64,000 nt of DNA from Candidatus Bipolaricaulota bacterium (GTDB lineage Bacteria > Patescibacteriota > Patescibacteriia > UBA11705 > DATKZF01). The notes beneath the pieces are model-generated. The model saw only the letters and a list, made by a program, of their open reading frames with translations, was not told where the DNA came from and made no database searches. A program made the position numbers and the translations under genes. Shown in pieces: positions 1-30,456 of this stretch (position 1 is its first letter; every line of letters starts with the position of its first letter). The stretch covers positions 92,508 through 156,507 of the forward strand of contig DATKZF010000001.1 of the NCBI GenBank assembly GCA_035528115.1. The letters run 5' to 3'.

Positions 1-3000
1 AAATTGTCGGATCCTCTGTCAGCGCCAAAACGGACAAAAACGGAGTGGCCACGATCGATACGGGCAAAATTTTAAGCTTAACGGAGATCAAGGAGCAAAG
101 ATTGGAAAATAATTATTTGATGAAAATATCGGCCGATAACAAAGCTGTCATTATCCCATTGAGCGCCGATTATTATTATTTGGGAGAAAATGAGAGCGAT
201 CAATATTGGAATTATTTTTTCAGCGACAGATCGATGTACAAACCGAATGACACCCTTAATTTTTGGGGATTCGCGCAGAGTCGCAATGGCCAGGAAAATA
301 TAGATAAAGTGAAAATTTCTCTTACGGAATTCGATTACAAAAATTATTATTACGAATCAATCGACGTCAATCAGGTTGTCGCCGAGGTTTCCGGAGGCGG
401 CACTTTTTCAGGCAAGATGGATCTGAAAAGCTTGACTCCCGGATATTACAGTTTGGATTTTTATATCAATGATAATTTGGTTTCGCGAAGATCCATCTCG
501 ATCGAAGATTACATTAAGCCGGCATACAGCCTGAACATAGTGCCGGAGAAAAAAGCCATTATCGCCGGCGAGCCCATCAATATTGATGTTAACGCTTCTT
601 TTTTCGAAGGAACCCCGGTGCCTAATCTGGCGCTTAGCTATAATGCCGATAAAGAAGATAAAACAATAAAGACGGACGCGCGAGGCGACGCCAAGATAAC
701 CATCTCGACAAACGCCTCCAAGCTTAATGACGATTGCATCAAAACCGCGAGTTGCCATCTTTACGAAAGCTCATACCGGAATGTTAATATTTCTCAGCTC
801 GATTCCGAAGAAGCGGATATTTACGACACGGTGACAATCAGACTTTATAACGCCGCCATTCAAGCCGGCGCCAGATTCGAGGCCATCGGCAACAATAAGG
901 CCAAAATTGAAACTAGAATAAATAACATTGATTTTGATGAATTGAACGCGGGTGAAGCTTCCATTTACAACGCGCCCGTTTTCGAGGATGAGTCCAAGAC
1001 GGCGGTCGCCAACGCGACATTTCAGGCGGCGGTCACGGAAATCACTTATGTCAAAAACGAAACCGGGGAATATTACGATTTTATCAATAAAGTTGTCAAA
1101 AAAACTTATGATTACGACAGGCAAGAAAATGTGGTTTTGGTTTATGATGGAAAAACCGACGCCAATGGCAAACATATTTTCGAATTGAATATTGACCCCG
1201 AAAAAAGTTATCAGGTGCAAATTTTAACCAAGGATGCGGCCGGAAGACAAACAATCGCCGACGCGTACATGTCGGGCAATTATCAGCCGTCTCTTTTTTC
1301 TCAATACGAACTGAAATTTAAAAATAAAGATGATGATTATTCGGCGACCTTTGATTTGGGAGAAAAAGTTGATGTCTCTTTCAATAAAGATGGTGTGCAA
1401 CTGCCCGCCGGAGGCAAGGATTATCTTTACCTTAATCTTCAAAAAGGCTTGATGAATTACTTTGTTAGCGATGCCGCGGAATACGCTTTCGAGTTTGAAG
1501 AAAAACATATTCCCAACGTGAACGTGAAAGGAGTATTTTTCGATGGGCAGGCGTATCATGAGGCCAATTCGGATTGGTATTTGGGATTTTCTCAAAGTAT
1601 TATCGCCAGATACAACAGTCTGTCCAAAGAATTGAATATCGCGGTCAAAGCTGATAAAGATAAATACGAACCTGGCGAAAAAGTAACATTGGATGTAAAA
1701 GTGTCCGATCGAAACAATAAAGCCAAAAAAACCGACGTAAATTTCAGTCTGGTGGATGAAGCGTTTTTCAGTCTGAGCGACCAGACCGTCATGCCCCTGG
1801 ACACTTTGTACGAGCCGGTTTCCACCGGTTTGATAAGCACCTATAAATCTCACGATTATGTGAAGTTTATGGGAGGAGGAGGCGCTGAAGGCGGCGGTTG
1901 CTTTGCCGCCGGCACCAAGATAACCATGGCTGATGGCTCCAAGAAAAATATTGAAGACGTCAAAGAAGGCGATGAAATTTTAACTTTCGAAAACGAACGA
2001 GCAATAAAAACCGTTTCCGCGAAAGTGGTCGAAACATTCGAGCACACGGTTTCGGGATATTTGTTGATTAATGATTCCTTGCGGGTAACGCCCGAGCACA
2101 GAATGTTCATCAATAGCGGTTGGCAGATGATCGGGGAAGCGAAAGTCAATGATATGTTAATGGACGAATCGGGACAATTGGTCAGAATTGAGAAAATCGC
2201 TTATGAAAGGGAAATCGTCAAAGTTTACAATTTGCATATTGAGAAGTATCACACTTTTTTCGCCAATGGCATTTACGTCCATAATGAAAAAGGCGGCGCT
2301 CGAGTCAATTTTTTGGACGTGGCTTTGTTTCAAACCGTTTCCACGAATGCCAAAGGGGAGGGGCAGGTAAGCTTCACTTTGCCGGACAATTTGACCTCCT
2401 GGCGCGTGACCTGCCAGGCGATCAATCAGGATCTCTTCGCCGGTTCATCAGTCATTAATATCCCGGTCAGTTTGCCGGTTTTCGTGCAACCGAATGTTTC
2501 TTCGGAATATTTATCTAAGGACAAACCGATTATTAAAATGACCGCTTACGGAACGGAGTTGACTTCCAAAGATCCGGTGTCGTTTAATCTGAAATCCGAA
2601 ACGCTCGGTATCAATGAAAAGGGAATTGCCGGAGCGGCGTTTGTTCCGAATTATTATCAAATAGAATCAATGCCGCAAGGACAGCACGAGTTGGAATTGG
2701 GAGTAGAGAGCTCGAAAGGCAATGACGGCATGATAAAGAAAATAACGGTCTTGGCGTCGCGGCTTCGAGAATCCGCGCAAAGATTCTATACTTTGTCAGA
2801 TGATTTGAAGGTCGAAGGCGGCGCTGCGGGCCTGACCAAGCTGACTTTCAGCGATTTGAATCAAGGCAGCTTTTACTGGACATTGCAAAAGATGTCTTGG
2901 ACGGTCGGCGACAGAGTGGATCAAAAGCTTTCCAGAATTATCGGCGATGAATTGCTCCTGAAATATTTCAATGAAAATAAGTACGAGGCCGACGATCTTG

Positions 3001-4181
3001 ACGCGAGTTTGTATCAAGACGCGAAAACCGGCATCAGTTTGTTCCCGTACAGCGGCGGCGATTACGAGTTAACCGCGAAGATAGCGGCGGTGGCGGCCGA
3101 TCATTTCGATAAAAATAATTTGGCCAATTATTTTTACGCAAAATTGAATAGCGATAAATCCACGCGAGAAGAAGTGGCGCTGGCTTTGTTCGGTCTGGCC
3201 GGTTTGGACGAGCCCGTGTTATTGCCCGTTCAAGCTTTCGCGAAAATAGAAGATTTGCCGGTCATTGAAAAGTTGTATATAGGTTTGGCGCTGGAAAAGC
3301 TGGGCGACGGAGAATCGGCCAGGTCCATCTTAAAAGAGCTGTTGGACGATTATGGCGATGAAAAGGCGCCATACGCTTGGTTGAAAGCGGGTTCGGATCA
3401 AGACGATATTTTACGGGCGACATCTTTGGCGGCGGTGCTGGCCGGAGGATTGAATCATGAATCTCACGAAGCTCTTTGGAGATATGTCAGAGACAACAGA
3501 ACCGATGAAGTTTTGGTTAATCTTGAGCAGTTGATGTACACGACGTTTTCGATCGACCAACTCAGACCGGGAGAATCTTCTTTTTCCTATGAATTGAACG
3601 GAGAAGTGAAAAATATTTCGCTGGAAAAGGGATCTTGGCATCAAATCTATCTTTCTCCGGAACAATTGAGCCAAATCAAATTCAGTAACATTTCCGGCAA
3701 AATAGGCGTGGTGAGCGGTTATGAAATCGCGGCCACGGCCGTTAATTCCGAAGAAAACGGCCTTAAAATTTCAAGAGAGTATTATGTCAACGGTAAAAAG
3801 ACCAATACGTTCAAGGATACTGACTTGGTGCAGGTTAGAATTAATTATTCTTTCGACGCGGCCGCCGTGCAAGGCGAATATGAGGTGGTCGATTCTTTGC
3901 CCAGCGGTTTGAGAATCGTTACCAACCCCTTCAGCAGATATCGGGAATTTATTTCCTCGGCTTGCGGTTTGCGATATCCATACGAAATAAGCGGTCAAAG
4001 AGTCAAATTCGGCGTCTGGAAGACGACTTATTCCAATTATTGCAACAACGGGGAATTCACGTATTTCGCCAGAGTGGTCAATCCCGGAGAATATGAAGCT
4101 GAGCCGGTTTTATTGCAATCGATTAAATCAAGCGAATTGAAAAGATATTCGGAAAGCTCGAGGATAACCATTGAAAAATAA
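1..4181 (+). CDS. Large secreted/surface protein, 5'-truncated by the window edge; carries an embedded Hint/BIL domain
   Basis: The frame of the 45..4181 ORF stays open back to nt 3, so the true start lies upstream of the window. The 1378+ aa product is Asn/Asp/Tyr-rich with Ig-like repetitive segments and no obvious catalytic motif apart from the embedded Hint domain. Confidence 0.7.
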   Translation, partial: IVGSSVSAKTDKNGVATIDTGKILSLTEIKEQRLENNYLMKISADNKAVIIPLSADYYYLGENESDQYWNYFFSDRSMYKPNDTLNFWGFAQSRNGQENIDKVKISLTEFDYKNYYYESIDVNQVVAEVSGGGTFSGKMDLKSLTPGYYSLDFYINDNLVSRRSISIEDYIKPAYSLNIVPEKKAIIAGEPINIDVNASFFEGTPVPNLALSYNADKEDKTIKTDARGDAKITISTNASKLNDDCIKTASCHLYESSYRNVNISQLDSEEADIYDTVTIRLYNAAIQAGARFEAIGNNKAKIETRINNIDFDELNAGEASIYNAPVFEDESKTAVANATFQAAVTEITYVKNETGEYYDFINKVVKKTYDYDRQENVVLVYDGKTDANGKHIFELNIDPEKSYQVQILTKDAAGRQTIADAYMSGNYQPSLFSQYELKFKNKDDDYSATFDLGEKVDVSFNKDGVQLPAGGKDYLYLNLQKGLMNYFVSDAAEYAFEFEEKHIPNVNVKGVFFDGQAYHEANSDWYLGFSQSIIARYNSLSKELNIAVKADKDKYEPGEKVTLDVKVSDRNNKAKKTDVNFSLVDEAFFSLSDQTVMPLDTLYEPVSTGLISTYKSHDYVKFMGGGGAEGGGCFAAGTKITMADGSKKNIEDVKEGDEILTFENERAIKTVSAKVVETFEHTVSGYLLINDSLRVTPEHRMFINSGWQMIGEAKVNDMLMDESGQLVRIEKIAYEREIVKVYNLHIEKYHTFFANGIYVHNEKGGARVNFLDVALFQTVSTNAKGEGQVSFTLPDNLTSWRVTCQAINQDLFAGSSVINIPVSLPVFVQPNVSSEYLSKDKPIIKMTAYGTELTSKDPVSFNLKSETLGINEKGIAGAAFVPNYYQIESMPQGQHELELGVESSKGNDGMIKKITVLASRLRESAQRFYTLSDDLKVEGGAAGLTKLTFSDLNQGSFYWTLQKMSWTVGDRVDQKLSRIIGDELLLKYFNENKYEADDLDASLYQDAKTGISLFPYSGGDYELTAKIAAVAADHFDKNNLANYFYAKLNSDKSTREEVALALFGLAGLDEPVLLPVQAFAKIEDLPVIEKLYIGLALEKLGDGESARSILKELLDDYGDEKAPYAWLKAGSDQDDILRATSLAAVLAGGLNHESHEALWRYVRDNRTDEVLVNLEQLMYTTFSIDQLRPGESSFSYELNGEVKNISLEKGSWHQIYLSPEQLSQIKFSNISGKIGVVSGYEIAATAVNSEENGLKISREYYVNGKKTNTFKDTDLVQVRINYSFDAAAVQGEYEVVDSLPSGLRIVTNPFSRYREFISSACGLRYPYEISGQRVKFGVWKTTYSNYCNNGEFTYFARVVNPGEYEAEPVLLQSIKSSELKRYSESSRITIEK
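1899..2285 (+). other. Hint / bacterial intein-like (BIL, type A) domain inside the surface protein
   Basis: 129 aa that begin with Cys (CFAAGTKI), carry a TPEH block B, and end in HTFFANGIYVHN followed by Glu. A Gly-rich linker (GGGGAEGGG) sits immediately N-terminal. Confidence 0.6.
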
Positions 4182-11230: not shown

Positions 11231-12895
11231 ATGCCTACATTAAATTGGATTGGAAAAGACGCAGTAATAAACCACGACAAAGAGGTTCCTTTTCGATTAC
11301 TCAAAAAAGTTAAGTCCGCTTCCGTAGGCAATTCTCAAAATCTCATTTTGCATGGCGACAATCTACATGCCTTGAAGGCTTTAATGCCATATTACACAGG
11401 TAAAATTGAGTGTATATATATTGATCCACCGTACAACACTGGGTCTGAAAAGTGGGTTTATAATGATAAAGTAAATTCACCCAAAATTAGAAGGTGGTTA
11501 AAAAAGATAGTAGATAGAGATGATCTTTGCAAACACGACAAATGGCTTTGCATGTTGTATCCAAGGTTGAAGCTTCTAAAAGATTTACTAAGTCAAGACG
11601 GTATTATTTTTATTAGCATTGACGATAATGAGTTCGCTCAACTTAAATTACTTTGTGATGAAATTTTTGGAGAATCAAATTTTATTTCGATGTTATCAAT
11701 TGAAAACAATCCTAAAGGTAGAAAAAATTCGGCTTTTATTTCTGTCAGTAATGAATATTGTTTAATATATGCCAAGGATAAAAATATTAGCTATTTTGTA
11801 GAAAATATTCCTAAAGGAGCAAAAGATTTAGCGCTTGATGAAAATGGAGTTTATGTACACAACAGTGGGAAAAGAGTGCTTGTAGGAGAAAACAAATTTA
11901 ATCCCGTTGTTGAAAATTTTGAATCGAGTAAACACTATAGCGTCTATTACAACAAATCCAAAAATGAAATAATCACCGTGAAAGAGAGATCTATTCATGA
12001 TAAAAATACAGATTTACTAAATAAAGGTTACAAAAGATATTATTCATATTTTGAAGATAAATTTGTTTTAAATACCTATACAGCGTCAAAAATTAAGCAA
12101 CTTTTTGAAAATGATGCTCTGGATTTTAAAAACGGAAAAATATATGAAAAGAACTTTAGTACAAAAATTAGGATTAAAAGCCTAGTTACCAATAGTAAAT
12201 ATGTAGCAGTTATAGACAACGAAAAAAAGGAATACCAAATAGATGTTAAAACTACTTCGGCAGGTACTGAATTAAAAAATCTTTTTGGCGCTAAAAAAAT
12301 CCCCTTCGATAACCCAAAAAATATAGGCCTGATTAAACTATTAGTTACTTTGTTTGAAAGAAAGGACATAACAATCCTTGATTCTTTTGCTGGCTCCGGC
12401 ACAACAGGTCACGCCGTTTTGGACTTAAACAAAGAAGATGAAGGAAATCGCAAATTCATCCTCGTTGAAATGGAGGACAATGTTGCCAAAGATATTACGG
12501 CGGAACGAGTAAAACGAGCGATCAAAAAATACGATTATAAAGACGGCTTCGAATATTGCGAACTCAGCAAACCACTTTTTGATGAAGAAGGCCAAATTGA
12601 GGACACTTGCGACTTTGACCAATTCGCAACCTACATTTACTTTACTGAAACGCAAACCAACATAGACCCTGCCAATGTATCGGGAAATTTTATCGGCGAA
12701 TACGCAGAAACCGAGTATTATTTGATATACAAAGAGAAGGGCGAAAATGTATTGAGTAAATCTTTTCTGAAAAAATTACGAAAAACCGACGGTACAAAAA
12801 TAATTTACGCCGACAAATGCTTGCTTGATGAGGCAACACTTGAGAGCCACAACATCATCTTCAAACAAATTCCTTACGAAGTTAAAGTTTACTAA
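11231..12895 (+). CDS. mod: Type III restriction-modification methyltransferase (Mod, N6-adenine, beta-class)
   Basis: DPPYNTG (motif IV) lies upstream of FAGSGTTGHAV (motif I). A large target-recognition region sits between them. Confidence 0.9.
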   Translation: MPTLNWIGKDAVINHDKEVPFRLLKKVKSASVGNSQNLILHGDNLHALKALMPYYTGKIECIYIDPPYNTGSEKWVYNDKVNSPKIRRWLKKIVDRDDLCKHDKWLCMLYPRLKLLKDLLSQDGIIFISIDDNEFAQLKLLCDEIFGESNFISMLSIENNPKGRKNSAFISVSNEYCLIYAKDKNISYFVENIPKGAKDLALDENGVYVHNSGKRVLVGENKFNPVVENFESSKHYSVYYNKSKNEIITVKERSIHDKNTDLLNKGYKRYYSYFEDKFVLNTYTASKIKQLFENDALDFKNGKIYEKNFSTKIRIKSLVTNSKYVAVIDNEKKEYQIDVKTTSAGTELKNLFGAKKIPFDNPKNIGLIKLLVTLFERKDITILDSFAGSGTTGHAVLDLNKEDEGNRKFILVEMEDNVAKDITAERVKRAIKKYDYKDGFEYCELSKPLFDEEGQIEDTCDFDQFATYIYFTETQTNIDPANVSGNFIGEYAETEYYLIYKEKGENVLSKSFLKKLRKTDGTKIIYADKCLLDEATLESHNIIFKQIPYEVKVY

Positions 12896-12897
12896 TT

Positions 12898-15168
12898 ATG
12901 GAACTCAAAAAATATCAACAATCAGCGCTAGACAAGCTCAAAGCCTACCTCAAAGGCATAGAGGCCGTCGGGCCAAAATATGCTTTCATGGGTGAAACCG
13001 ACCGACCGTATCACGGCGACTTTTTCGGTGATGTGCCTTTCGTTTGTGTAAAAATCCCGACTGGCGGAGGAAAAACGCTTGTCGGCTGTCATGCTATCAA
13101 CGAAATCATGCGCTCTTTCCTCAAGCACAAAATGGATAGAGGAATTGTGATGTGGTTTGTGCCGTCCGAGGCTATCAAATCCCAAACACTCAAAAAATTT
13201 AAAGACCGCAACGACTGGCACAGGCAGGTTTTGGACGAGGCATTTCAAAACAGCGTGCGTATTTTTTCAAACGAGGAAGCATTGCGAATCAGAAAAGAGG
13301 ATGTTCAGGACAATCTTTGCATTATCATTTCCAGTTTGGAGGCTTTCCGAAAAGAAAAAACGCTCCAAAAGAAATACAAGGTTTATCAAGAAAATGGCGC
13401 ACTATTGAGCCATTTTGAAAATCTTGATGACCGAGACGACCTAGAAAAAGACGAGGAAGGCACAATTATTAATTCCCTCGCAAATGTCGTCCGCATGAGC
13501 AACCCGCTTGTGGTGATTGATGAAGGTCACAAAACAAAGACCGAGCTTTCAATGGATTTTCTCAATAGTCTGAATCCAAGTTTTATAATTGAATACACTG
13601 CAACACCACGCTCCGGCAGTAATATTTTAGTGGATATTTCCCCCGCTGAACTCAAAGACGAGCAGATGGTGAAAATTCCACTTGTACTTGAAAGCTCCGC
13701 CCAATGGCAAAACGCCGTTGCCCGCGGTCTTGAGAAGCGAGCCGAAATTGAAAAAGAAGGTAAGAAAAATACAGGCGAATATATCCGTCCAATTGCCCTA
13801 ATCCAAGCCCAGCCAAAAAGCAAAACGCAAAACAACGTAACTGTTGATCAAATCAAGGAATATTTACTTTCCGCCAAAATTTCCGAAGAAGAAATTGCGA
13901 TCAAAACATCCGACCGAAACGATTTAGAGGGCGTTGATTTATTTAGCAAGAAATGTAAAATCCGCTACATAATAACCGTTAGTGCGCTCGCCGAAGGATG
14001 GGACTGTTCTTTTGCCTATGTTCTCATTTCCGTTGCCAATGTCGGCGCAAAAATAGCCGTTGAACAGATCATCGGACGCATTATCCGTATGCCGTATGCC
14101 AAACGAAAGAAAAACGAGGCATTAAACCGCTCTTACATTTTCGCCTCCGCCAAAAACTTCAATGAGGCAGCCAGCAACATCATTTCAGGACTAGAAAGAA
14201 ACGGCTACAGCAAACTGGACTTGATCGGCGCTTCATCAAACGGCGATACCGCAAAAGACCCGAAAGAAGTAAACCGAGCCGTGAAAAAGAATTTTGCCGT
14301 TCCGATGATGAGCTTGGAGGATGAAAAACTGACCTTTGAAGAACTGATCGGCGAAGATTTTGAGCTGGCCAAACAAAACGCTGAGTTTGATTTTGAAATT
14401 CATTATGATAATGACGGCAGAGCGATTATCGATATTCAAGCCGACAAATGGATTAAGGGCGCTCAACAATTCTTAAAGCTCACCTATAAAGATAAAAACT
14501 TCTCAAAAAAGGAACTAGTGCAATGGTTAGACAAAAAGCTACGCTACACCCTCCTGGCTCAACCTGATAAAGTAAATTTTATTGATAACGCTTTGGAATA
14601 TCAACTAAAGAAAAAATCATTGATTGAATTGTCAGTTAATCGCTATGTTTTACTTAATAAGCTCGGCGAGGTAATAGATGGCATTTTGGAAGCACACAGT
14701 AAAACTCAGTTTGATAAAGCATTGTCTGCCAAAAAAATTACTGTTAAACCGTTTGATAAATATCCCGAGACAATTATTTTGGATCAGGAAATGCCTCAAG
14801 AATTCAACAAATCATACTATGAAAAAGTTGGTAAATTGAATAAAGAAGAATTGAATTTGATTGACCGGCTGGATTTAGAGACTTTACCGAACATTGATTT
14901 TTGGATACGCAATAGAGAAAAGACTGATCCGTTCTATATTATTGGTTGGAAGAAAAATAAATTTTATCCCGATTTTGTCGTCTATACAAAAAAAGGCAAT
15001 ATTATTGCGTTAGAGTGGAAAGGCGAAGATCGGGTTAGCAACAAGGATACAGAATACAAAGTTGATATTAGTAACAAATGGGCAGCACTCGCTAAGGGCA
15101 AACTGCATTTCTTCTTGGTTCATATTGGGAATATTGAAGATGTGTTGAACAGCCTAAGAGGACTTTAA
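12898..15168 (+). CDS. res: Type III restriction endonuclease Res subunit (SF2 helicase plus C-terminal PD-(D/E)xK)
   Basis: KIPTGGGKT Walker A and VIDEGHK (DEGH) helicase motifs. The C-terminal YPDFVV...IIALEWK is PD-ExK-like. The gene starts 3 nt after mod. Confidence 0.9.
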   Translation: MELKKYQQSALDKLKAYLKGIEAVGPKYAFMGETDRPYHGDFFGDVPFVCVKIPTGGGKTLVGCHAINEIMRSFLKHKMDRGIVMWFVPSEAIKSQTLKKFKDRNDWHRQVLDEAFQNSVRIFSNEEALRIRKEDVQDNLCIIISSLEAFRKEKTLQKKYKVYQENGALLSHFENLDDRDDLEKDEEGTIINSLANVVRMSNPLVVIDEGHKTKTELSMDFLNSLNPSFIIEYTATPRSGSNILVDISPAELKDEQMVKIPLVLESSAQWQNAVARGLEKRAEIEKEGKKNTGEYIRPIALIQAQPKSKTQNNVTVDQIKEYLLSAKISEEEIAIKTSDRNDLEGVDLFSKKCKIRYIITVSALAEGWDCSFAYVLISVANVGAKIAVEQIIGRIIRMPYAKRKKNEALNRSYIFASAKNFNEAASNIISGLERNGYSKLDLIGASSNGDTAKDPKEVNRAVKKNFAVPMMSLEDEKLTFEELIGEDFELAKQNAEFDFEIHYDNDGRAIIDIQADKWIKGAQQFLKLTYKDKNFSKKELVQWLDKKLRYTLLAQPDKVNFIDNALEYQLKKKSLIELSVNRYVLLNKLGEVIDGILEAHSKTQFDKALSAKKITVKPFDKYPETIILDQEMPQEFNKSYYEKVGKLNKEELNLIDRLDLETLPNIDFWIRNREKTDPFYIIGWKKNKFYPDFVVYTKKGNIIALEWKGEDRVSNKDTEYKVDISNKWAALAKGKLHFFLVHIGNIEDVLNSLRGL

Positions 15169-15214
15169 AATATTTAAGTAGCATTAAAAATGACGGAAAA
15201 TAATATAAATTAAA

Positions 15215-16114
15215 ATGAGTGAAGAATTTACTAAAATAACTATAGACGAATTAATCGGCCCACCTATAGATATTTCTAAACTTGATGTGAGTTCTAAGTC
15301 AGCTTTATCAAAAGCCGCATTTGATTTATATAGAGAAACTGCAATGGTTGCTGTATTGGCATCCCATTTATATGAGTCTTATCAGCCAGAAAGAAGTGCA
15401 TTACCACGTGATCAGGCAATAGGTATTGGCCTAATCGTGAGGATATCAAAATTTATGTCATCGGTTTTAGCACTTTTGTGTGACAAAGAAAGAGAGCACG
15501 GCGAAGTCATAATGAGTTTGAATAGGTGTATTATTGAATCAGCAATAAACTTAAAATTTTTTTGCGAAGAAGCATTAGAACTGGATTTTGAAGAATTTGT
15601 TAAATCAAGTCTTAAACCAGAAAAGGAGGCATATGATTCAATTCAGAAAAATATTAGCAAAAGAGGATCGACATTACCAATTGAAAAAAGAATGCTCAAC
15701 TCAATTAACCTAACCTTTCGTACTTCTGGGATAAAAGAAGTAAGCGAGCTTACATCGATTCCCAAAAGGAAGAATTACAAAGATATTCTTACTATAATGG
15801 GGATGGAGTCATTCTATCCGTTTTTCCAAGGAATTCCATCCCACGCTATACATGGCACTTGGGTGGATCTTATACTTCACCACTTAGAAAAAACAGATGA
15901 CGGTTTTAGGCCTAAACCAGAGCCTACTGTTACAGACGCACGTTTACTGTGTCCCATTAACCTCATAATTCTAACGGCCATACAATCTTATATCAAAAAA
16001 TATTTTATACATGATAGTGAAGTGTTTGTGGCTCTCGTGGATAGAATTAGTGGACTACTAGAACTTAATAATAAAGTTGATACTGCTCACGAAGAGAGCA
16101 TTTCCAATAAATAA
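15215..16114 (+). CDS. Hypothetical protein attached to the Type III R-M pair
   Basis: 299 aa, same AT-rich composition as mod/res. No motif I recognise; it sits inside the repeat-bounded island. Confidence 0.6.
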   Translation: MSEEFTKITIDELIGPPIDISKLDVSSKSALSKAAFDLYRETAMVAVLASHLYESYQPERSALPRDQAIGIGLIVRISKFMSSVLALLCDKEREHGEVIMSLNRCIIESAINLKFFCEEALELDFEEFVKSSLKPEKEAYDSIQKNISKRGSTLPIEKRMLNSINLTFRTSGIKEVSELTSIPKRKNYKDILTIMGMESFYPFFQGIPSHAIHGTWVDLILHHLEKTDDGFRPKPEPTVTDARLLCPINLIILTAIQSYIKKYFIHDSEVFVALVDRISGLLELNNKVDTAHEESISNK

Positions 16115-17226: not shown

Positions 17227-17454
17227 ATGTCGCCATCTGTCTTAAAATGTTCGGTTTGCGGCAGTGATCAACTTTTTATGTCAAAATTGCAAGCCGGATT
17301 CTCGGGCGCGCACGGTTTTTCGCTGGAACCTGACAGAAAAACCTGGAATAAAAAAGGCGTAAAGCCGCAAACGTGGGTGTGCGAAGATTGCGGTCAGGTG
17401 ATTTTTTTCATCGCGCCTCATGAAAAGGACAATATTTTCAGATTTACCAAATGA
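17227..17454 (+). CDS. Zinc-ribbon small protein
   Basis: Two CxxC pairs (CSVCG ... CEDCG). Confidence 0.55.
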   Translation: MSPSVLKCSVCGSDQLFMSKLQAGFSGAHGFSLEPDRKTWNKKGVKPQTWVCEDCGQVIFFIAPHEKDNIFRFTK

Positions 17455-17460
17455 AGCGGA

Positions 17461-17594
17461 GTTACGAATTACAAGATTCTAGTTGGATTTTAGGTAATTT
17501 GTTACTAATTACAAGATTCTTAGGCATAAAGCTATAAGTTCATGTATTTCGTAACAACCGCTTGGAAGCTAAATAGAAGAATGTAATTCGTAAC
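17461..17594 (+). repeat. MITE-like repeat, 134-bp form (R2)
   Basis: GTTACGAATTACAA at the 5' end and AATGTAATTCGTAAC at the 3' end. The internal blocks (attcttaggcataaagctataa, aaccgcttggaagctaa) are shared with R7. Confidence 0.7.
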
Positions 17595-17661
17595 AGTAAT
17601 ATCCACTTTTGAGGACATAAATATTTTTTTATGTCTTTTTTTGTGCTATAATTTTAACAAT

Positions 17662-17787
17662 ATGAAAGAAAAAACCTTTTTAACGATAGTTGTTATCGTG
17701 ATTTTAATTGTTGTTTTTTTTGGTTATTTATATCTAAAAAACGGTTTGAGTAGCGCGGCTTTGGAAATACCCATGCCGAGCAGATAA
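17662..17787 (+). CDS. Possible 41-aa single-TM micropeptide
   Basis: MKEKTFLTIVVIVILIVVFFGYLYLKNGLSSAALEIPMPSR. It follows an extended -10 (TGCTATAAT) and ends 4 nt before the protease gene. Confidence 0.3.
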   Translation: MKEKTFLTIVVIVILIVVFFGYLYLKNGLSSAALEIPMPSR

Positions 17788-17791
17788 AATT

Positions 17792-18628
17792 ATGAGCAAA
17801 ACAAAAAACGGCAAAGCCAAGCTATCGGCTTTGTGGCAGACTTTATTAACCTTTGCCTTGGCGCAAGTGGTGTCTCTTGTTACAGCCATTGTTATTTGGC
17901 AAGAACAAGACTTCACTCCAATAACCATGCCCGTTCCTTGGTACACTTTCGTTTTGTCTTTTTCGATTGCCACACTTTTCGTGCTTTTGGCCATAAAATA
18001 CCTTAAAGGCGGCAGGTTCTTCATCTTGTTTTTTTACTTACTGGTGGCCATCGGAGCCATGGAAGTTTTTAGCTCCTTTTTGATTTCCGAATTGGCTTTG
18101 CTGTGCGTTTTAATAATTTTGATAATCAGATTGTCAGCCCCCAGCATTTGGATTCATAATCTCGCCATTATTGTGGGCTTGGCCGGAATTTCAGCTTCGA
18201 TCGGCAAGGATTTGACGCCAATGGGAGTCATCGTGATTTTGATTGTCTTATCGGTTTACGATTACATCGCCGTATATAAAACTAAAACGATGGTAAAAAT
18301 GTTCAAAGGGCTTTTATCCAGAGGCGTGATATTTTCAATTATCATTCCCGAGCATGTTAAAAATTGGACAGTGCCCTTGCAGAAGGTCAGGCAAGGTGAA
18401 GGCTTTATGTTTTTGGGCACCGGAGATATTGCTTTGCCCATGATTTTCGCGGCCAGCGTCTTGCCGGAAGGCCTGATAGCTTCCTTGGGCGTGATCATCG
18501 GTTCGCTTGTCGGAGTTTTGTGCATCCACTTGATTTTCAACATACAAAAGAAACGCGCGCCCATGCCAGCTCTGCCTCCGATAGCGTTCTTTTCGATTTT
18601 GGGATATCTAATTTCCATGTTTATATAA
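17792..18628 (+). CDS. Presenilin / signal-peptide-peptidase-like intramembrane aspartyl protease (A22 family)
   Basis: Polytopic membrane protein with YD (SVYDYIAV), GxGD (FLGTGDIALP) and PAL (MPALPP) motifs in the canonical order and spacing. Confidence 0.6.
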   Translation: MSKTKNGKAKLSALWQTLLTFALAQVVSLVTAIVIWQEQDFTPITMPVPWYTFVLSFSIATLFVLLAIKYLKGGRFFILFFYLLVAIGAMEVFSSFLISELALLCVLIILIIRLSAPSIWIHNLAIIVGLAGISASIGKDLTPMGVIVILIVLSVYDYIAVYKTKTMVKMFKGLLSRGVIFSIIIPEHVKNWTVPLQKVRQGEGFMFLGTGDIALPMIFAASVLPEGLIASLGVIIGSLVGVLCIHLIFNIQKKRAPMPALPPIAFFSILGYLISMFI

Positions 18629-19523: not shown

Positions 19524-20555
19524 ATGGAAAATTCGCAAATCGAACAAAAAAAAGGCCATGGAAAAATAAAATGCGTTTTTATCGTTATCTTAATGCTGGC
19601 GGCTTTGTTGGCCGGCGTGTTGTTTTTTCTTTACACCTTGATTCCGCCAAAGTCCGCCAATGACAACCCTGCTTGGGGCGTGACATATTCTCCCAGATTC
19701 GCCAGAGAACTGGGACTTGATTGGCAAAAAACCTATCTTGATATTTTGGACAATTTGAATTTCAAAAACATCAGACTGGCCGCTTATTGGGATGAAATCG
19801 AACCTGATATCGATGATTATGATTTTAATGATCTGGATTGGATGATTGATGAAGCGTCAAAAAGAAACGTTGACGTGATTTTGGTTTTCGGCAAAAAAGT
19901 TTTGCGTTGGCCCGAGTGTTATGAGCCTCGATGGACCAATACGATCAGCAATGATGAGAAAACGGTCCAGCTTTTGGAAATGGTAGATTTGATTGTAAAT
20001 CGCTACAAAGACAATGAACATATTATCATGTGGCAGGTGGAAAACGAGGTTTTCTTTCCTTTCGGCACTTGTCAAAAGCCTCAGCCAAATGTTTTCGAAA
20101 AAGAAATAGCTTTGGTGAAATCATTGGACGATCGGCCGATAATGCTGACCGATTCCGGGGAATTGAGCACTTGGAGAAAAATTTGCTCACGCGCCGATGT
20201 TTTGGGAATTACCATGTACAGAGATGTCGCCACGCCCATGACCGGCGATTTTCATTGGCCTCTGCCGCCCGAATGGTATTCGAAGCGAGCTTGGTTGGCT
20301 GAAAAAAAAGTCGATAAGGTTATAGTGGCTGAAATGCAAATGGAGCCTTGGTTTAATGTGCCGTTTAACAGCGTGTCCGTATCCGAACAAAGAAATAAAT
20401 TTGATGTGGAATTGTTTAACGATAATATCGATTTTGCCATGAAAGCGGGTTTTGAATCTTATTATTTATGGGGAGTGGAGTGGTGGTATTATATGAATGA
20501 GTACGGGTATTCCGAATATCTTGAAGCGGCGAAAAAGCTTACTCCGTTAAATTGA
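19524..20555 (+). CDS. Membrane-anchored glycoside hydrolase, TIM-barrel (GH5/GH113-like)
   Basis: An N-terminal TM segment, then WQVENEVFFPFG with a candidate catalytic Glu in the NE context. Confidence 0.5.
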   Translation: MENSQIEQKKGHGKIKCVFIVILMLAALLAGVLFFLYTLIPPKSANDNPAWGVTYSPRFARELGLDWQKTYLDILDNLNFKNIRLAAYWDEIEPDIDDYDFNDLDWMIDEASKRNVDVILVFGKKVLRWPECYEPRWTNTISNDEKTVQLLEMVDLIVNRYKDNEHIIMWQVENEVFFPFGTCQKPQPNVFEKEIALVKSLDDRPIMLTDSGELSTWRKICSRADVLGITMYRDVATPMTGDFHWPLPPEWYSKRAWLAEKKVDKVIVAEMQMEPWFNVPFNSVSVSEQRNKFDVELFNDNIDFAMKAGFESYYLWGVEWWYYMNEYGYSEYLEAAKKLTPLN

Positions 20556-20616: not shown

Positions 20617-20772
20617 ATGAATATTTCATCAAAGAAATGCGCGGTTTGCGGCAAAGAAAGTAATAATCTCATTGAAAAACATGAGCAGGTTTTTTGCGGT
20701 CAGGAATGTTTGAATAAATTCGAAGAGCAACTCAAAGAGCTGGAAGGCATGTCGCTTGACGATTGCTGTTAA
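20617..20772 (+). CDS. 51-aa zinc-binding small protein
   Basis: MNISSKKCAVCGKESNN...FCGQEC...DDCC. Below the ORF-track length cutoff. Confidence 0.5.
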   Translation: MNISSKKCAVCGKESNNLIEKHEQVFCGQECLNKFEEQLKELEGMSLDDCC

Positions 20773-27222: not shown

Positions 27223-28731
27223 ATGCCAAAACTATTCGATAAAACATTCTACATCGCCCTGGGAATATTCATTCTTACTGAAATTTTGTCGATTATTGGG
27301 TTTTTCAACGTCTTCATGGAAAAGCCCTTGTTCATTTTAATATTGCTTTTAACCGCTGTTTTGGGCTGTATAAAATATGAGTTCAGTGTAATTGTATTGA
27401 TTTCCGAATTGATTATCGGCTCAAAAGGTTATTTATTTTCCTGGCCGATAACTCAAGAAAGTGGCATTTCAATTCGGCTTGGTATTTTCCTAATTGTTTT
27501 CTTGATCGGTTTGATTAAAATTATTAGGGATTGTTTGAAAAAAGAGGGGAGATTCATCTTCTGGTATTCCAAATTAAGAAATTATTATTTTCTTATTTTT
27601 ATTGTTATTTTTTGGGGAGTCATTTGGGCCTTGATTAGAAAAATAAGCCCCGGTGATATTTTCTTTGACTCAAACGCCTATTTGTATTTAGGTTTGGCGC
27701 CGATTTTATATCAATTAATCACCTCAAAAGCTCAAATTTTGAATTTATTGAGAGTTTTTCTGGCGGCCACTGCCCATGTTTGTCTCAAATGTTTCGTTTT
27801 ACTTTATATCTTCTCGCATGGCCTGAGCTTTGCCGAACCGCTTTATCACTGGGTCAGGGACACCGGCTTTGGAGAAATCACTTTATTATCGGGCAATTTT
27901 TTCCGCGTTTTCTCACAAGCTCAGATTTACTCCTTAATCGGTTTTTTTATCGCTTTTGCATTACTGATTTCCTTGAAAAATTTAAGAACTAAGAATGCGA
28001 TCGGGCTGTTTATTATTTCCGCCTCGGCGCTATCAAATGTGATTTTCAGCTTGTCTCGAAGCTTTTGGGTGGCCGCGGCCGGAACTTTTATTATATTGAT
28101 CGGGGTAATGTTTTTTAAATATCGCCTAAAAATCAAAGAAGTGAGCAAAATAAAAGCTTGGTTTTTCAGCGCTTTGACAATCAGCGTTCTTTTGATCATC
28201 GCGGTGGTCAAATTTCCGATACCGCCGGTAAAAGTTGACCTTGACGCTTTGCGGCACAGGTTTCAAATCAGCGACGAAGCCGCGGTTTCCAGTCGTTGGA
28301 GCCAACTGCCCGAGCTCGGTCTGGCCATTGCCGGACATCCAATCATCGGCTCGGGCTTCGGTCAAACAGTCACTTACATTACTTCGGATCCCAGGCTTTT
28401 GTCCGAATTTCCGGATGGCAAATACACGACTTTCGCTTTTGAATGGGGCTACCTTGATCAAATCTTGAAATTCGGTCTGGCCGGATTGGTCATTTATCTG
28501 CTTTATATTTATAAAATATGGCGATTGGGTTGGTTTGCCGCTAAAAACGCGGTGAAGGAATTTGAGCGGCCGCTGATTTTGGGCTTGATCTTCGGCCTAC
28601 TGGCTCTGATGGCAACGCATATGTTCAGTCCATACCTTAACCATCCTCTTGGAATCGGGTATTTAATTTTGATTGGGATTTGGTTTGAAATTTTACCAAT
28701 ACCTGTCGTTTCAACCTCATCACAAAAATAA
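27223..28731 (+). CDS. O-antigen ligase/polymerase-like polytopic membrane protein
   Basis: More than 10 TM segments with a large periplasmic loop, in a glycosylation gene context. Confidence 0.5.
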   Translation: MPKLFDKTFYIALGIFILTEILSIIGFFNVFMEKPLFILILLLTAVLGCIKYEFSVIVLISELIIGSKGYLFSWPITQESGISIRLGIFLIVFLIGLIKIIRDCLKKEGRFIFWYSKLRNYYFLIFIVIFWGVIWALIRKISPGDIFFDSNAYLYLGLAPILYQLITSKAQILNLLRVFLAATAHVCLKCFVLLYIFSHGLSFAEPLYHWVRDTGFGEITLLSGNFFRVFSQAQIYSLIGFFIAFALLISLKNLRTKNAIGLFIISASALSNVIFSLSRSFWVAAAGTFIILIGVMFFKYRLKIKEVSKIKAWFFSALTISVLLIIAVVKFPIPPVKVDLDALRHRFQISDEAAVSSRWSQLPELGLAIAGHPIIGSGFGQTVTYITSDPRLLSEFPDGKYTTFAFEWGYLDQILKFGLAGLVIYLLYIYKIWRLGWFAAKNAVKEFERPLILGLIFGLLALMATHMFSPYLNHPLGIGYLILIGIWFEILPIPVVSTSSQK

Positions 28732-28802
28732 TCGCTGTCTCTCTATCCCGGCATCGGGGTCGTGAGGAAATAAGAGGGGAATCACTTATTCCTCTTTTAA
28801 TA

Positions 28803-28831
28803 TTGACAATTTCATTCAAAATGCTATATTT
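28803..28831 (+). promoter_or_regulatory. Sigma70-like promoter TTGACA-N16/17-TATATT
   Basis: First signal in the GC-rich islet. A strong SD (AAGGAGG) lies 7 nt before the ATG. Confidence 0.5.
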
Positions 28832-28861
28832 AATCTCCGATCGCAAAAAAGGAGGTGTCAC

Positions 28862-29086
28862 ATGTGGGACATTGATCCGTCGGGAACCGCGCTCAACAGA
28901 GAAGGCATGCTGGTGGCCATTGCGCTGGCCATCTTCGTTGTCGTCATCTACCTCGTCGTGAGAGGAGTCCTGATTCGACGAGAACTGCGGTACCTGGAGG
29001 AGCTCAGAAGAAACAGCGACCCACCCAGTACTGATGAACCGACTCCAATCACGGAATTGGGGGGAGACGGGGAGAAAAATGCTTGA
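28862..29086 (+). CDS. 74-aa single-TM peptide (P1)
   Basis: GC-rich ORF with a hydrophobic core (VAIALAIFVVVIYLVV) and an acidic/Pro C-tail. Strong SD. Confidence 0.4.
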   Translation: MWDIDPSGTALNREGMLVAIALAIFVVVIYLVVRGVLIRRELRYLEELRRNSDPPSTDEPTPITELGGDGEKNA

Positions 29087-29225
29087 TATCCTTTGGTTTC
29101 TCAATGACAAGCAGGCCGCGCTCCTCGTGGGCTTCGGCGGCTTGATCATCGCGTACTGCTGCATCTACTTTCTGTTTGCGACTGGAGCGAAAAAAAGCAC
29201 CTCGCAAGGTTGTCCGAGAAAGTGA
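29079..29225 (+). CDS. 48-aa single-TM peptide (P2)
   Basis: MLDILWFLNDKQAALLVGFGGLIIAYCCIYFLF... Its ATG overlaps the P1 stop, and a GGGGAG SD precedes it. Confidence 0.35.
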   Translation: MLDILWFLNDKQAALLVGFGGLIIAYCCIYFLFATGAKKSTSQGCPRK

Positions 29226-29268
29226 ATATCCCAAGCGCGGACTGAATCTGGTTCGCGTTTTTGAATTC

Positions 29269-29297
29269 TTGACAGCGAGCTAAGGCTTGTGTATATT
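29269..29297 (+). promoter_or_regulatory. Consensus sigma70 promoter TTGACA-N17-TATATT
   Basis: ttgacagcgagctaaggcttgtgtatatt, followed by a GAGGAG SD 8 nt before the ATG. Confidence 0.55.
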
Positions 29298-29337
29298 TAG
29301 GGGAGGAGGAACCCCTTCGCGGTGAGGAGCTAGTGCC

Positions 29338-29460
29338 ATGAAAGCTATGCCCGAAAACAGTCCTAAGGCGTACCGGTACTTCCCAGTGTTCCTGATCACT
29401 TTGTTGATCATCTTGGTGATCATCGAACTCCTCACTAAAACTTTATCCACGTGGCGCTGA
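29338..29460 (+). CDS. 40-aa single-TM peptide (P3)
   Basis: MKAMPENSPKAYRYFPVFLITLLIILVIIELLTKTLSTWR. It has its own promoter and SD. Confidence 0.4.
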   Translation: MKAMPENSPKAYRYFPVFLITLLIILVIIELLTKTLSTWR

Positions 29461-29526
29461 TCACGCCCCAAAGAGTCCGCCTGCCATAAAGGCGCGACAA
29501 ACGTGAAGTGAATCTACTTCGCGTTT

Positions 29527-30456
29527 TTATTGTAATTTTAATCCTATGAATTCCGGATGTCCGTTGATAAAATCATTGGCACCTACTTCTTTTTTCCCTT
29601 CCAACTTAACTTTTTTGATTTCCAAGCACCCGTTTTCGCATTGAACCAAAATCCTATCGTCATGTTTAAAAACCGAGCCGACCGGTTTAGCTTCACCGCA
29701 TTCGGCGACATCAGCCGACAATATATCCAATTTTTTATCGTTAAAAAAAGTAAAAGCGCCCGGCCAGGGAGTAAACGCTCTAATTTGATTAAAAATATGC
29801 TCGGCGGAACTTTGCCAGACAATACGGCCTTGGCCTTTGGTGATGGTGGGAAAGTAAGAAGCCGCCGAATCATCTTGTTTTTGCGGATTGATTTGACCTG
29901 ACAGATAATTAGAAATGGTTTTAGACATGAGTTCGGCGCCGAGCACGGACAAGCGGTCATGAAGCGTTTGAAAATTATCGCTCTTTTTGATTTGCGATTT
30001 GTTCTGAGAAATAATATCTCCCGTATCCAGACCGGCGTCCATTTTCATAATAGTAACCCCTGTTTCCTTGTCTCCGTTGAGCAAAGCGGCCTGAATGGGC
30101 GCGGCGCCGCGGTATTTGGGGAGTAGGGAAGCGTGAATATTCAAACAGCCATGTTTTGGCAGATCCAAAATTTCCTTGGGTAAAATTTTGCCGAAAGCCA
30201 CCACCACGCCGAGATCGGGTTGTATTTTTTTCAATTCATCAATGAAATTTTTATCCAACTTTTCCGGCTGTAAAATTAAAAAATCACGCGCTTGCGCGTA
30301 TTCTTTGATCGGCGAAGCCGATAATATTTTATTTCTGCCCTTTGGTTTATCAGGTTGCGTAACGACCGCTTCGATTGAGAAATTCTCAGCCAGCGCTCGA
30401 AGAGTCGGGATGGCAAAATCGGGCGTGCCGAAGAAAATTACTTTTATGTTGTTCAT
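29527..30456 (-). CDS. fmt: Methionyl-tRNA formyltransferase
   Basis: N-terminal IFFGTPDFA motif, SLLPKYRGAAPI, and a C-terminal domain. Confidence 0.9.
   Translation of the reverse strand: MNNIKVIFFGTPDFAIPTLRALAENFSIEAVVTQPDKPKGRNKILSASPIKEYAQARDFLILQPEKLDKNFIDELKKIQPDLGVVVAFGKILPKEILDLPKHGCLNIHASLLPKYRGAAPIQAALLNGDKETGVTIMKMDAGLDTGDIISQNKSQIKKSDNFQTLHDRLSVLGAELMSKTISNYLSGQINPQKQDDSAASYFPTITKGQGRIVWQSSAEHIFNQIRAFTPWPGAFTFFNDKKLDILSADVAECGEAKPVGSVFKHDDRILVQCENGCLEIKKVKLEGKKEVGANDFINGHPEFIGLKLQ

Follow-up and report, generated by a model that had tools for sequence, protein, structure and literature searches.

The 64,000-nucleotide stretch of contig DATKZF010000001.1 analysed here (assembly GCA_035528115.1, positions 92,508 to 156,507; hereafter the window) encodes a polytopic membrane protein which, as judged from its sequence and a structural model, is assigned as a full-length intramembrane aspartyl protease of the presenilin/presenilin homologue (PSH) family. 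The gene directly ahead of it specifies a membrane protein of 41 residues with a single transmembrane segment (TM), referred to as the micropeptide, which belongs to a previously undescribed orphan family found only beside a PSH-type protease in one clade of Patescibacteria. The best overall explanation of the locus is a PSH protease with a dedicated micropeptide partner, preferably a subunit of the enzyme, a reading whose probability is placed just short of even. A preliminary description of the same DNA had recognized a presenilin/SPP-family protease behind a single-TM micropeptide, and this core reading is upheld by the profile, the model and the homologues; several of the details attached to it are revised below.

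The protease carries the YD, GxGD and PAL motifs in the order and at the places first proposed (Table 1), and its assignment to MEROPS A22 is borne out by the Pfam profile PF06550 (family 'SPP', the archaeal presenilin homologues), which matches residues 25–276 over profile positions 8–278 of 283 with a score of 71.1 bits, the cutoff being 23.9, and E = 1.5e-19. The agreement of motifs and profile is far beyond chance. The NCBIfam model NF041679, an equivalog of archaeal PSH, scores 71.5 bits, which is under its equivalog cutoff of 125; the protease is thus a member of the family and not an equivalog of euryarchaeal PSH. Among the sequences of the PDB only the PSH of Methanoculleus marisnigri (4hyc, 4hyg and 4y6k) is matched (E = 8e-13), and the match brings YD, GxGD and PAL into register. 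Thirty homologues, 36–65% identical to the window protein, were aligned; Y156, D157, G209, G211, D212, A260, L261 and P262 are invariant among them, both predicted catalytic aspartates included, and P259 is at least 90% conserved.

The same alignment served as the basis of an AlphaFold2 model of the protease (pLDDT 89.5, pTM 0.87), which displays nine TM helices. The YD motif lies within helix 143–164 (TM6), GxGD stands at the start of TM7, where a strand (205–209) is followed by a helix (210–222), and PAL directly precedes helix 261–277, at the start of TM9, so that the motifs are placed in the three helices named in the preliminary description. When the model was compared with the PDB by Foldseek, the archaeal PSH came first (4y6k/4hyg, TM-score 0.64–0.72), followed by presenilin-1 in many γ-secretase structures and by SPPL2a. 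All 18 matches with E ≤ 0.001 and all 24 with a probability of 1.0 are PSH, presenilin or SPPL2a, and the next match has E > 0.7; the comparison with the archaeal enzyme proposed earlier thus shows a resemblance, which extends to presenilin-1 and SPPL2a. The two aspartates are separated by 55 residues and the TM6–TM7 loop comprises about 45, a short loop for which no endoproteolytic activation is expected. The enzyme is predicted to be catalytically competent.

The orientation of the protease was derived from the distribution of Lys and Arg. Over the 30 homologues the N-terminus together with loops 2–3, 4–5, 6–7 and 8–9 holds on average 17.8 of these residues, as compared to 2.5 on the opposite side, and the N-terminus is Lys-rich in every member of the clade. 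By the positive-inside rule this asymmetry predicts an N-in/C-out protein with a cytoplasmic TM6–TM7 loop, an orientation like that of presenilin and PSH and opposite to that of SPP. The topology of SPP, which is opposite to that of presenilin, has been tied to the type II substrates that it prefers (PMC2947513). The epithet 'SPP-like', given earlier to the spacing of the motifs, therefore stands for the short inter-aspartate spacing and TM6–TM7 loop and fails for the orientation, which is predicted as N-in.

The micropeptide was followed through nine PSH loci of the close clade and 78 more distant ones; a scan with one genome per species had found 517 PSH loci, and a scan of metagenome contigs for further clade members added two. 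The micropeptide is present in all nine loci of the close clade, defined by proteases 59–66% identical to the window protein (the window, L001, L002 and L081–L086), always directly upstream of the PSH gene and on the same strand. This adjacency is strict and clade-wide, so that the conservation to be looked for in homologous loci is found throughout the close clade. The orthologues are 39–50 residues long and share one architecture, with the consensus MKEKTF-x-T-(~18 hydrophobic)-YY-x-K-[AS]-N-L-N-x-D-x-F-x-[IV]-P-M-P followed by 0–8 variable residues. F6, K26 directly after the TM, and P37, M38 and P39, which form a PMP near the C-terminus, are invariant. The TM is rich in the β-branched residues Ile, Val and Thr and is flanked by tails of 4–11 and 14–21 residues; the soluble tail is the best-conserved part of the protein and the TM core is variable.

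The ratio of nonsynonymous to synonymous substitution (dN/dS) lies between 0.06 and 0.58 in every measurable pair of orthologues, while synonymous sites are near saturation (proportion of synonymous differences, pS, 0.41–0.86), and all four Pro codons are used across the loci for the two invariant prolines. The micropeptide is hence a genuine protein-coding gene under purifying selection. That the 41-codon open reading frame (ORF) yields no functional protein, having arisen by chance or acting as a regulatory upstream ORF or as part of a 5′ leader RNA ahead of the protease gene, would accord with its very small size and with the lack of a Shine-Dalgarno sequence and of a known family. Against this, frame, length and motifs are kept in nine loci at such synonymous divergence, the promoter is positioned for leaderless translation in seven of the nine, no Rfam family lies at the site, and the Shine-Dalgarno sequence is, by eye, also absent from the neighbouring genes. 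Selection at the codon level together with the absence of an Rfam family leads to the rejection of a chance ORF or leader RNA, and a non-functional ORF is, as a whole, extremely improbable.

A profile hidden Markov model (HMM) built from the micropeptides recovers all nine at E ≤ 1e-20. Searched over the six-frame ORFs of the other PSH loci, it finds the micropeptide in none of 78, with nothing better than E = 0.28. Profile searches of 5.8 billion proteins and, exhaustively by HMMER, of 1.84 billion representatives yield only 3–4 clusters, all of which adjoin a PSH gene. The family has no curated counterpart in Pfam or NCBIfam, and the copy in the window is annotated at NCBI as a hypothetical protein. 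PSH homologues at or below 47% identity are without the micropeptide, as are the loci L003, L004 and L006, to which its clade is sister in a rough neighbour-joining tree. The sister loci without it make the gene look like an innovation at the base of the clade.

Four further candidates were considered and rejected. Gene fission, by which the micropeptide would be a detached N-terminal helix of the protease, does not agree with the homologues, as all 30 share the start of TM1 and the nine helices and none has an extra N-terminal TM. A match of the micropeptide to DUF7859 is noise from TM composition (21.8 bits, under the cutoff of 27; confined to the TM region; one member in eight). The resemblance of its PMP to the 'PMPALPP' of the protease is coincidental, for five of the nine clade proteases read AAMPALPP. 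Nor do other clades show a general habit of placing a single-TM ORF ahead of the PSH gene, since a non-homologous one occurs in only three of about 70 loci (L016, L053 and L060).

Two other kinds of small ORF were observed near PSH genes. One is very basic, 28–50 residues long and of the form MKKYSSK+AKKGKxAYRTPSRF...; it lies upstream of PSH, on the same strand and no more than 4 kb away, in at least 15 of the 80 loci (L008, L012, L018, L025, L036, L045, L049, L050, L054, L057, L058, L059, L067, L070 and L074; also L062 and L077), abuts or overlaps the PSH start in about nine, and has no Pfam match. The other is a Lys-rich protein of 63–69 residues (...KRKRKEKIKKLKEKYL...HYPIxEILK) directly upstream of the PSH start or overlapping it in L031, L079 and L080, a Nealsonbacteria-like clade; scans of the L031 and L079 copies against DUF6800 (cutoff 25) gave 43 bits for one and only 17.9 bits for the other.

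The favoured role of the micropeptide can be put as a sequence of steps. The transcription unit would run from a terminator through an extended −10 promoter to the micropeptide, PSH, EamA and glycoside hydrolase genes. Its first gene, probably leaderless, would supply the clade-specific single-pass membrane protein, and its second the nine-TM protease, with the N-terminus and the TM6–TM7 loop in the cytoplasm and the catalytic aspartates on TM6 and TM7. The micropeptide would associate with the protease in the membrane as a dedicated partner and serve as an accessory or regulatory subunit, possibly a non-cleaved pseudo-substrate or gatekeeper in or beside the substrate cleft, while its conserved tail K-[AS]-N-L-N-x-D-x-F-x-[IV]-P-M-P would dock on clade-specific loops of the protease.

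A subunit is tentatively preferred over a substrate, at rather less than an even chance, on a comparison of the clade sequences and on precedent. The tail is the most conserved part of the micropeptide and stays fixed even where the protease has fallen to about 60% identity; the TM core varies freely. The clade protease possesses 15 clade-specific invariant residues, which lie on both membrane faces and include V48, P49, W50, Y51, E100, D140, T166, H188, N191 and E203; of these, VPWY is located at the outer end of TM2, and T166, H188, N191 and E203 in the cytoplasmic loop. Single-TM micropeptides encoded in operons, for example KdpF and CydX, mostly serve as subunits, which is also counted in favour of this role. 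A further precedent is provided by BofA, which, together with SpoIVFA, places a TM segment in the active-site cleft of SpoIVFB and blocks the access of substrate (PMC9042235). That micropeptide and PSH form a dedicated two-gene module is possible, if doubtful; the micropeptide would then be the first native ligand to be genetically linked to a prokaryotic presenilin homologue, either as a cleaved substrate or as an inverted, uncleavable pseudo-substrate that gates the enzyme.

Several points weigh against a dedicated subunit. The clade also keeps unrelated downstream genes in order (a Zn-ribbon ORF, AhpC and QueA), so that inherited synteny could explain much of the adjacency, and nine loci are too few for an analysis of covariation. 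The PSH of Methanoculleus is active alone in vitro and in principle needs no cofactor (PMC2947513). Moreover, the short tails on both sides and the TM rich in β-branched residues give the micropeptide the look of a presenilin/SPP substrate that is independent of shedding, and an orientation unsuited to a substrate is only a weak counterargument, as the flanking charges do not decide how the micropeptide lies in the membrane.

These features lead to an alternative in which the micropeptide serves the protease as its dedicated native substrate, cut with no prior shedding, its cleavage freeing a C-terminal ...F-x-[IV]-P-M-P peptide which, depending on orientation, would pass outside as a signal or into the cytoplasm. 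Strict and clade-specific adjacency, tails of such length, the abundance of Ile, Val and Thr in the TM and the invariant Lys directly after it are all in keeping with a substrate. This Lys resembles the Lys/Arg anchor behind the TM of APP and Notch, and dedicated prokaryotic proteases, such as sortases and prepilin peptidases, are often encoded beside their substrates. That an intramembrane protease can turn small precursors into peptide signals is also known from Eep and the pheromones of enterococci (PMC4173765).

The membrane orientation of the micropeptide bears on this alternative in both directions. The difference in flanking charge, Δ(N−C), is 0 in four of the nine orthologues, −1 in one and +1 to +4 in the remaining four. 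With an N-in protease an N-out/C-in micropeptide would be a canonical type I substrate, and the charges are compatible with this in five of the nine; in the other four they favour N-in/C-out, which by the orientation rule is the wrong polarity for an N-in enzyme of presenilin type (PMC2947513). The label 'type-II-like' in the preliminary description is not established by these ambiguous charges; were it correct, it would argue against a canonical substrate of an N-in enzyme. Peptide signals of such a type tend to diversify fast, whereas the PMP and the tail are nearly invariant, and the operon contains no evident receptor gene. On balance a dedicated substrate is considered somewhat unlikely, and a regulatory subunit remains the preferred role.

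The micropeptide gene ends 4 nucleotides (nt) before the protease start and is preceded by its own extended −10 element, TGcTATAAT, as had been described. The element ends 9 nt before the ATG, which places the start of transcription at or next to this codon and suggests a leaderless or near-leaderless mRNA, going by the sequence. TGnTATAAT occurs 5–12 nt ahead of the micropeptide ATG in seven of the nine orthologous loci, and the pattern TGNTATAAT has nine copies in the window against 2.7 expected. A promoter consensus scan did not call the element, there being no −35 element. Immediately before it lies a terminator-like hairpin for which none of 200 shuffled sequences folded as stably; it probably marks the end of the upstream transcription unit directly before the micropeptide promoter, and a comparable hairpin with a T-run is seen by eye ahead of the promoter in L001, L082 and L083. 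The intergenic sequence of about 200 nt before the hairpin (17455–17610) carries two copies each of the short direct repeats 'aattacaagattct' and 'attcgtaaca', and no Rfam family.

Table 1. Features of the protease locus, in window coordinates
Feature	Position	Strand	Basis or detail
Terminator-like hairpin, GGACATAAATA...TATTTATGTC, with T-run	17611–17642	+	ΔG −13.5 kcal/mol, z −3.8
Extended −10 element, TGcTATAAT	17644–17652	+	Sequence
Micropeptide gene, 41 residues, MKEKTFLTIVVIVILIVVFFGYLYLKNGLSSAALEIPMPSR, one TM of ~21 residues	17662–17787	+	Nine orthologues, dN/dS; ATG 17662, TAA 17785–17787
Predicted presenilin/PSH-family (A22, PF06550) intramembrane aspartyl protease, 278 residues, nine TM, predicted N-in/C-out	17792–18628	+	Profile, homologues, AlphaFold2, Foldseek, Lys/Arg count; ATG 17792, TAA 18626–18628
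YD motif, SVYDYIAV	18257–18262	+	Y156-D157; D157 predicted catalytic
GxGD motif, LGTGDIA	18416–18427	+	G209-T-G211-D212; D212 predicted catalytic
PAL motif, MPALPP	18566–18574	+	P259-A260-L261
EamA/DMT-superfamily polytopic membrane protein, 296 residues	18632–19522	+	PF00892 33.6 bits (cutoff 28.2)
Glycoside hydrolase, 343 residues, N-terminal TM anchor, clan-A-like TIM barrel (GH5/GH42/GH10-like)	19524–20555	+	Partial matches: PF02449 34.1 bits (cutoff 21), PF00150 30.6 bits (cutoff 23.5)

Downstream of the protease the DMT transporter and the membrane-anchored glycoside hydrolase of the preliminary description are both found, the first as an EamA-family gene 3 nt past the protease stop and the second 1 nt past the EamA stop. 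Both are syntenic in L001, L002 and L086. The translational coupling proposed for these genes is not a conserved feature, the downstream gaps in the orthologous loci ranging from −4 to 78 nt. The block kept in L001, L002 and L086 extends rightward through the micropeptide, PSH, EamA and glycoside hydrolase genes, sometimes a DUF389 gene, a 51-residue Zn-ribbon ORF, AhpC and QueA. The genes to the left vary between loci, being a Zn-ribbon ORF and rmlC in the window, an ORF of 345–352 residues in L001 and L002 (not scanned for families) and an ABC ATPase gene in L083 and L086. These differing left flanks indicate that the conserved block begins at the micropeptide promoter.

As unrelated genes belong to the conserved block, synteny alone is no proof of a functional link, and the micropeptide could be a genuine small membrane protein that has only its promoter and gene order in common with the protease and may serve the EamA protein, the glycoside hydrolase or general envelope biology. 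Besides the synteny of the whole block, the variable spacer between micropeptide and PSH genes (4–68 nt across the clade) and the more distant PSH homologues that do without a micropeptide are consistent with a mere neighbour. Against it stand the left edge of the block, which is the micropeptide promoter in every locus despite the differing upstream genes, and the fact that the micropeptide is never found away from PSH. It also arose at the base of the same clade in which the protease gained its 15 clade-specific invariant residues. A neighbour of this kind is considered unlikely, and a partner of the protease is retained as the favoured reading.

Small Cys-rich ORFs of zinc-ribbon or treble-clef-like appearance flank the operon, one of 75 residues at 17227–17454 (+) and one of 51 residues at 20617–20772 (+). 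The 51-residue ORF is conserved in the L001 block, and a 51-residue gene occupies the equivalent position in L086. Further upstream, a type III restriction-modification pair (N6_N4 methylase, 11231–12895; ResIII helicase, 12898–15168) is followed by a DUF5677 protein (15215–16114, +). The stretch 11231–16114 looks like an inserted island, the syntenic relatives carrying other genes there.

The statement that bacterial presenilin homologues are rare proved to be overstated. The family is rare across bacteria overall; it is common in the Patescibacteria and in DPANN archaea, and it is recognized by automatic annotation. NCBI already holds an identical protein under the name 'presenilin family intramembrane aspartyl protease', and the window protein is thus a new member of a known, annotated family. 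A protein search retrieved 380 relatives, and PF06550 is present in all 120 homologues among the matches listed. The best 80 of the 517 loci are nearly all from Patescibacteria (Parcu-, Azam-, Falkow-, Staskawicz- and Nealsonbacteria), together with nine DPANN archaeal contigs (L009, L011, L017, L019, L027, L034, L043, L061 and L066), whose PSH genes are 35–47% identical to the window protein. In seven of these nine contigs large ORFs upstream appear by eye to be archaeal replication genes, MCM-like or PolD-small-subunit-like. The DPANN sequences nest inside the bacterial ones in a rough neighbour-joining tree without support values, which suggests, at the level of sequence, an exchange between the domains. 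A literature search found no paper on presenilin homologues in bacteria of the Candidate Phyla Radiation (CPR), returning only papers on the gut microbiome and Alzheimer's disease or CPR papers without presenilin.

The metagenome-assembled genome that contains the window is labelled Candidatus Bipolaricaulota, and its syntenic relatives are labelled Patescibacteria. Some 'binchicken' genomes with close homologues bear the labels Gammaproteobacteria or Saccharibacteria. The taxonomic labels of these assemblies are probably unreliable.

Elsewhere in the window, positions 45–4181 (+) encode an α-2-macroglobulin-like protein of 1378 residues with MG2, A2M_BRD, A2M and bMG10 domains, in which a Hint/PT-HINT/intein-like domain occupies residues 618–747, between the bait region and the A2M domain. 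The cumulative GC skew peaks at about 28000–30000, where the genes switch from the + to the − strand, and this region resembles a replication terminus.

Archaeal and bacterial presenilin homologues are simple models of γ-secretase, for which natural substrates and regulation are still a gap; a 2022 review gives the function of the presenilin homologue of Haloferax volcanii as 'Unknown' (PMC9263693). With a specific, conserved single-pass membrane protein of 41 residues as its constant companion, the protease would offer a concrete two-component system for tests of binding, inhibition and cleavage. The wide distribution of the family in CPR bacteria, intermixed with DPANN archaea, bears on the origin of presenilin-type proteases and on gene exchange between ultra-small symbionts. 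If a ...F-x-[IV]-P-M-P peptide were indeed released, one conceivable role would be that of a signal sent outside by an episymbiotic CPR cell; if the micropeptide is only a neighbour, the locus holds an ordinary, already annotated member of the family.

The closest characterized relative is the PSH (MCMJR1) of Methanoculleus marisnigri (4HYG, 4HYC, 4Y6K), which shares with the window protein the Pfam family, the nine-TM fold, the placement of YD, GxGD and PAL, the short TM6–TM7 loop and the nature of a single-chain enzyme. The two are just 21–24% identical, however, and the window protein falls in the CPR/DPANN branch, whose members are about 35–47% identical to it. To our knowledge, no co-encoded micropeptide has been described for PSH. 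Presenilin-1 in γ-secretase is alike in its catalytic fold and predicted orientation and, as an idea, in having a small membrane protein, PEN-2, as an obligatory partner; the window protein differs in being without the long self-cleaved loop of presenilin. PEN-2 is a multi-helix protein of about 100 residues, unlike the single-pass micropeptide. None of nicastrin, APH-1 and PEN-2 is present among the operon genes, and the micropeptide matches neither PEN-2 nor any other Pfam model. SPP and SPPL (A22B; SPPL2a, PDB 9K92) have in common with the window protein a short TM6–TM7 loop and, as predicted for the latter, the GxGD aspartyl mechanism and cofactor-free activity, with a Foldseek probability of 1.0, whereas SPP is inverted and cuts type II TM segments (PMC2947513) and the window protein is predicted N-in and is 15% identical to SPPL2a.

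Two further systems correspond to the two roles weighed for the micropeptide. The Eep-dependent pheromones of Enterococcus, short hydrophobic precursors cut by an intramembrane protease to yield a signalling peptide (PMC4173765), are the model for a dedicated substrate, with the differences that Eep is a metalloprotease and that its precursors, which are lipoprotein signal peptides, have their genes elsewhere in the genome; neither a receptor nor a peptide exporter was identified at the locus described here. BofA and SpoIVFB would provide the mechanistic model for the favoured regulatory subunit, a small membrane protein that occupies the cleft of an intramembrane protease, although SpoIVFB is an S2P metalloprotease within a sporulation-specific circuit and BofA has no sequence similarity to the micropeptide.

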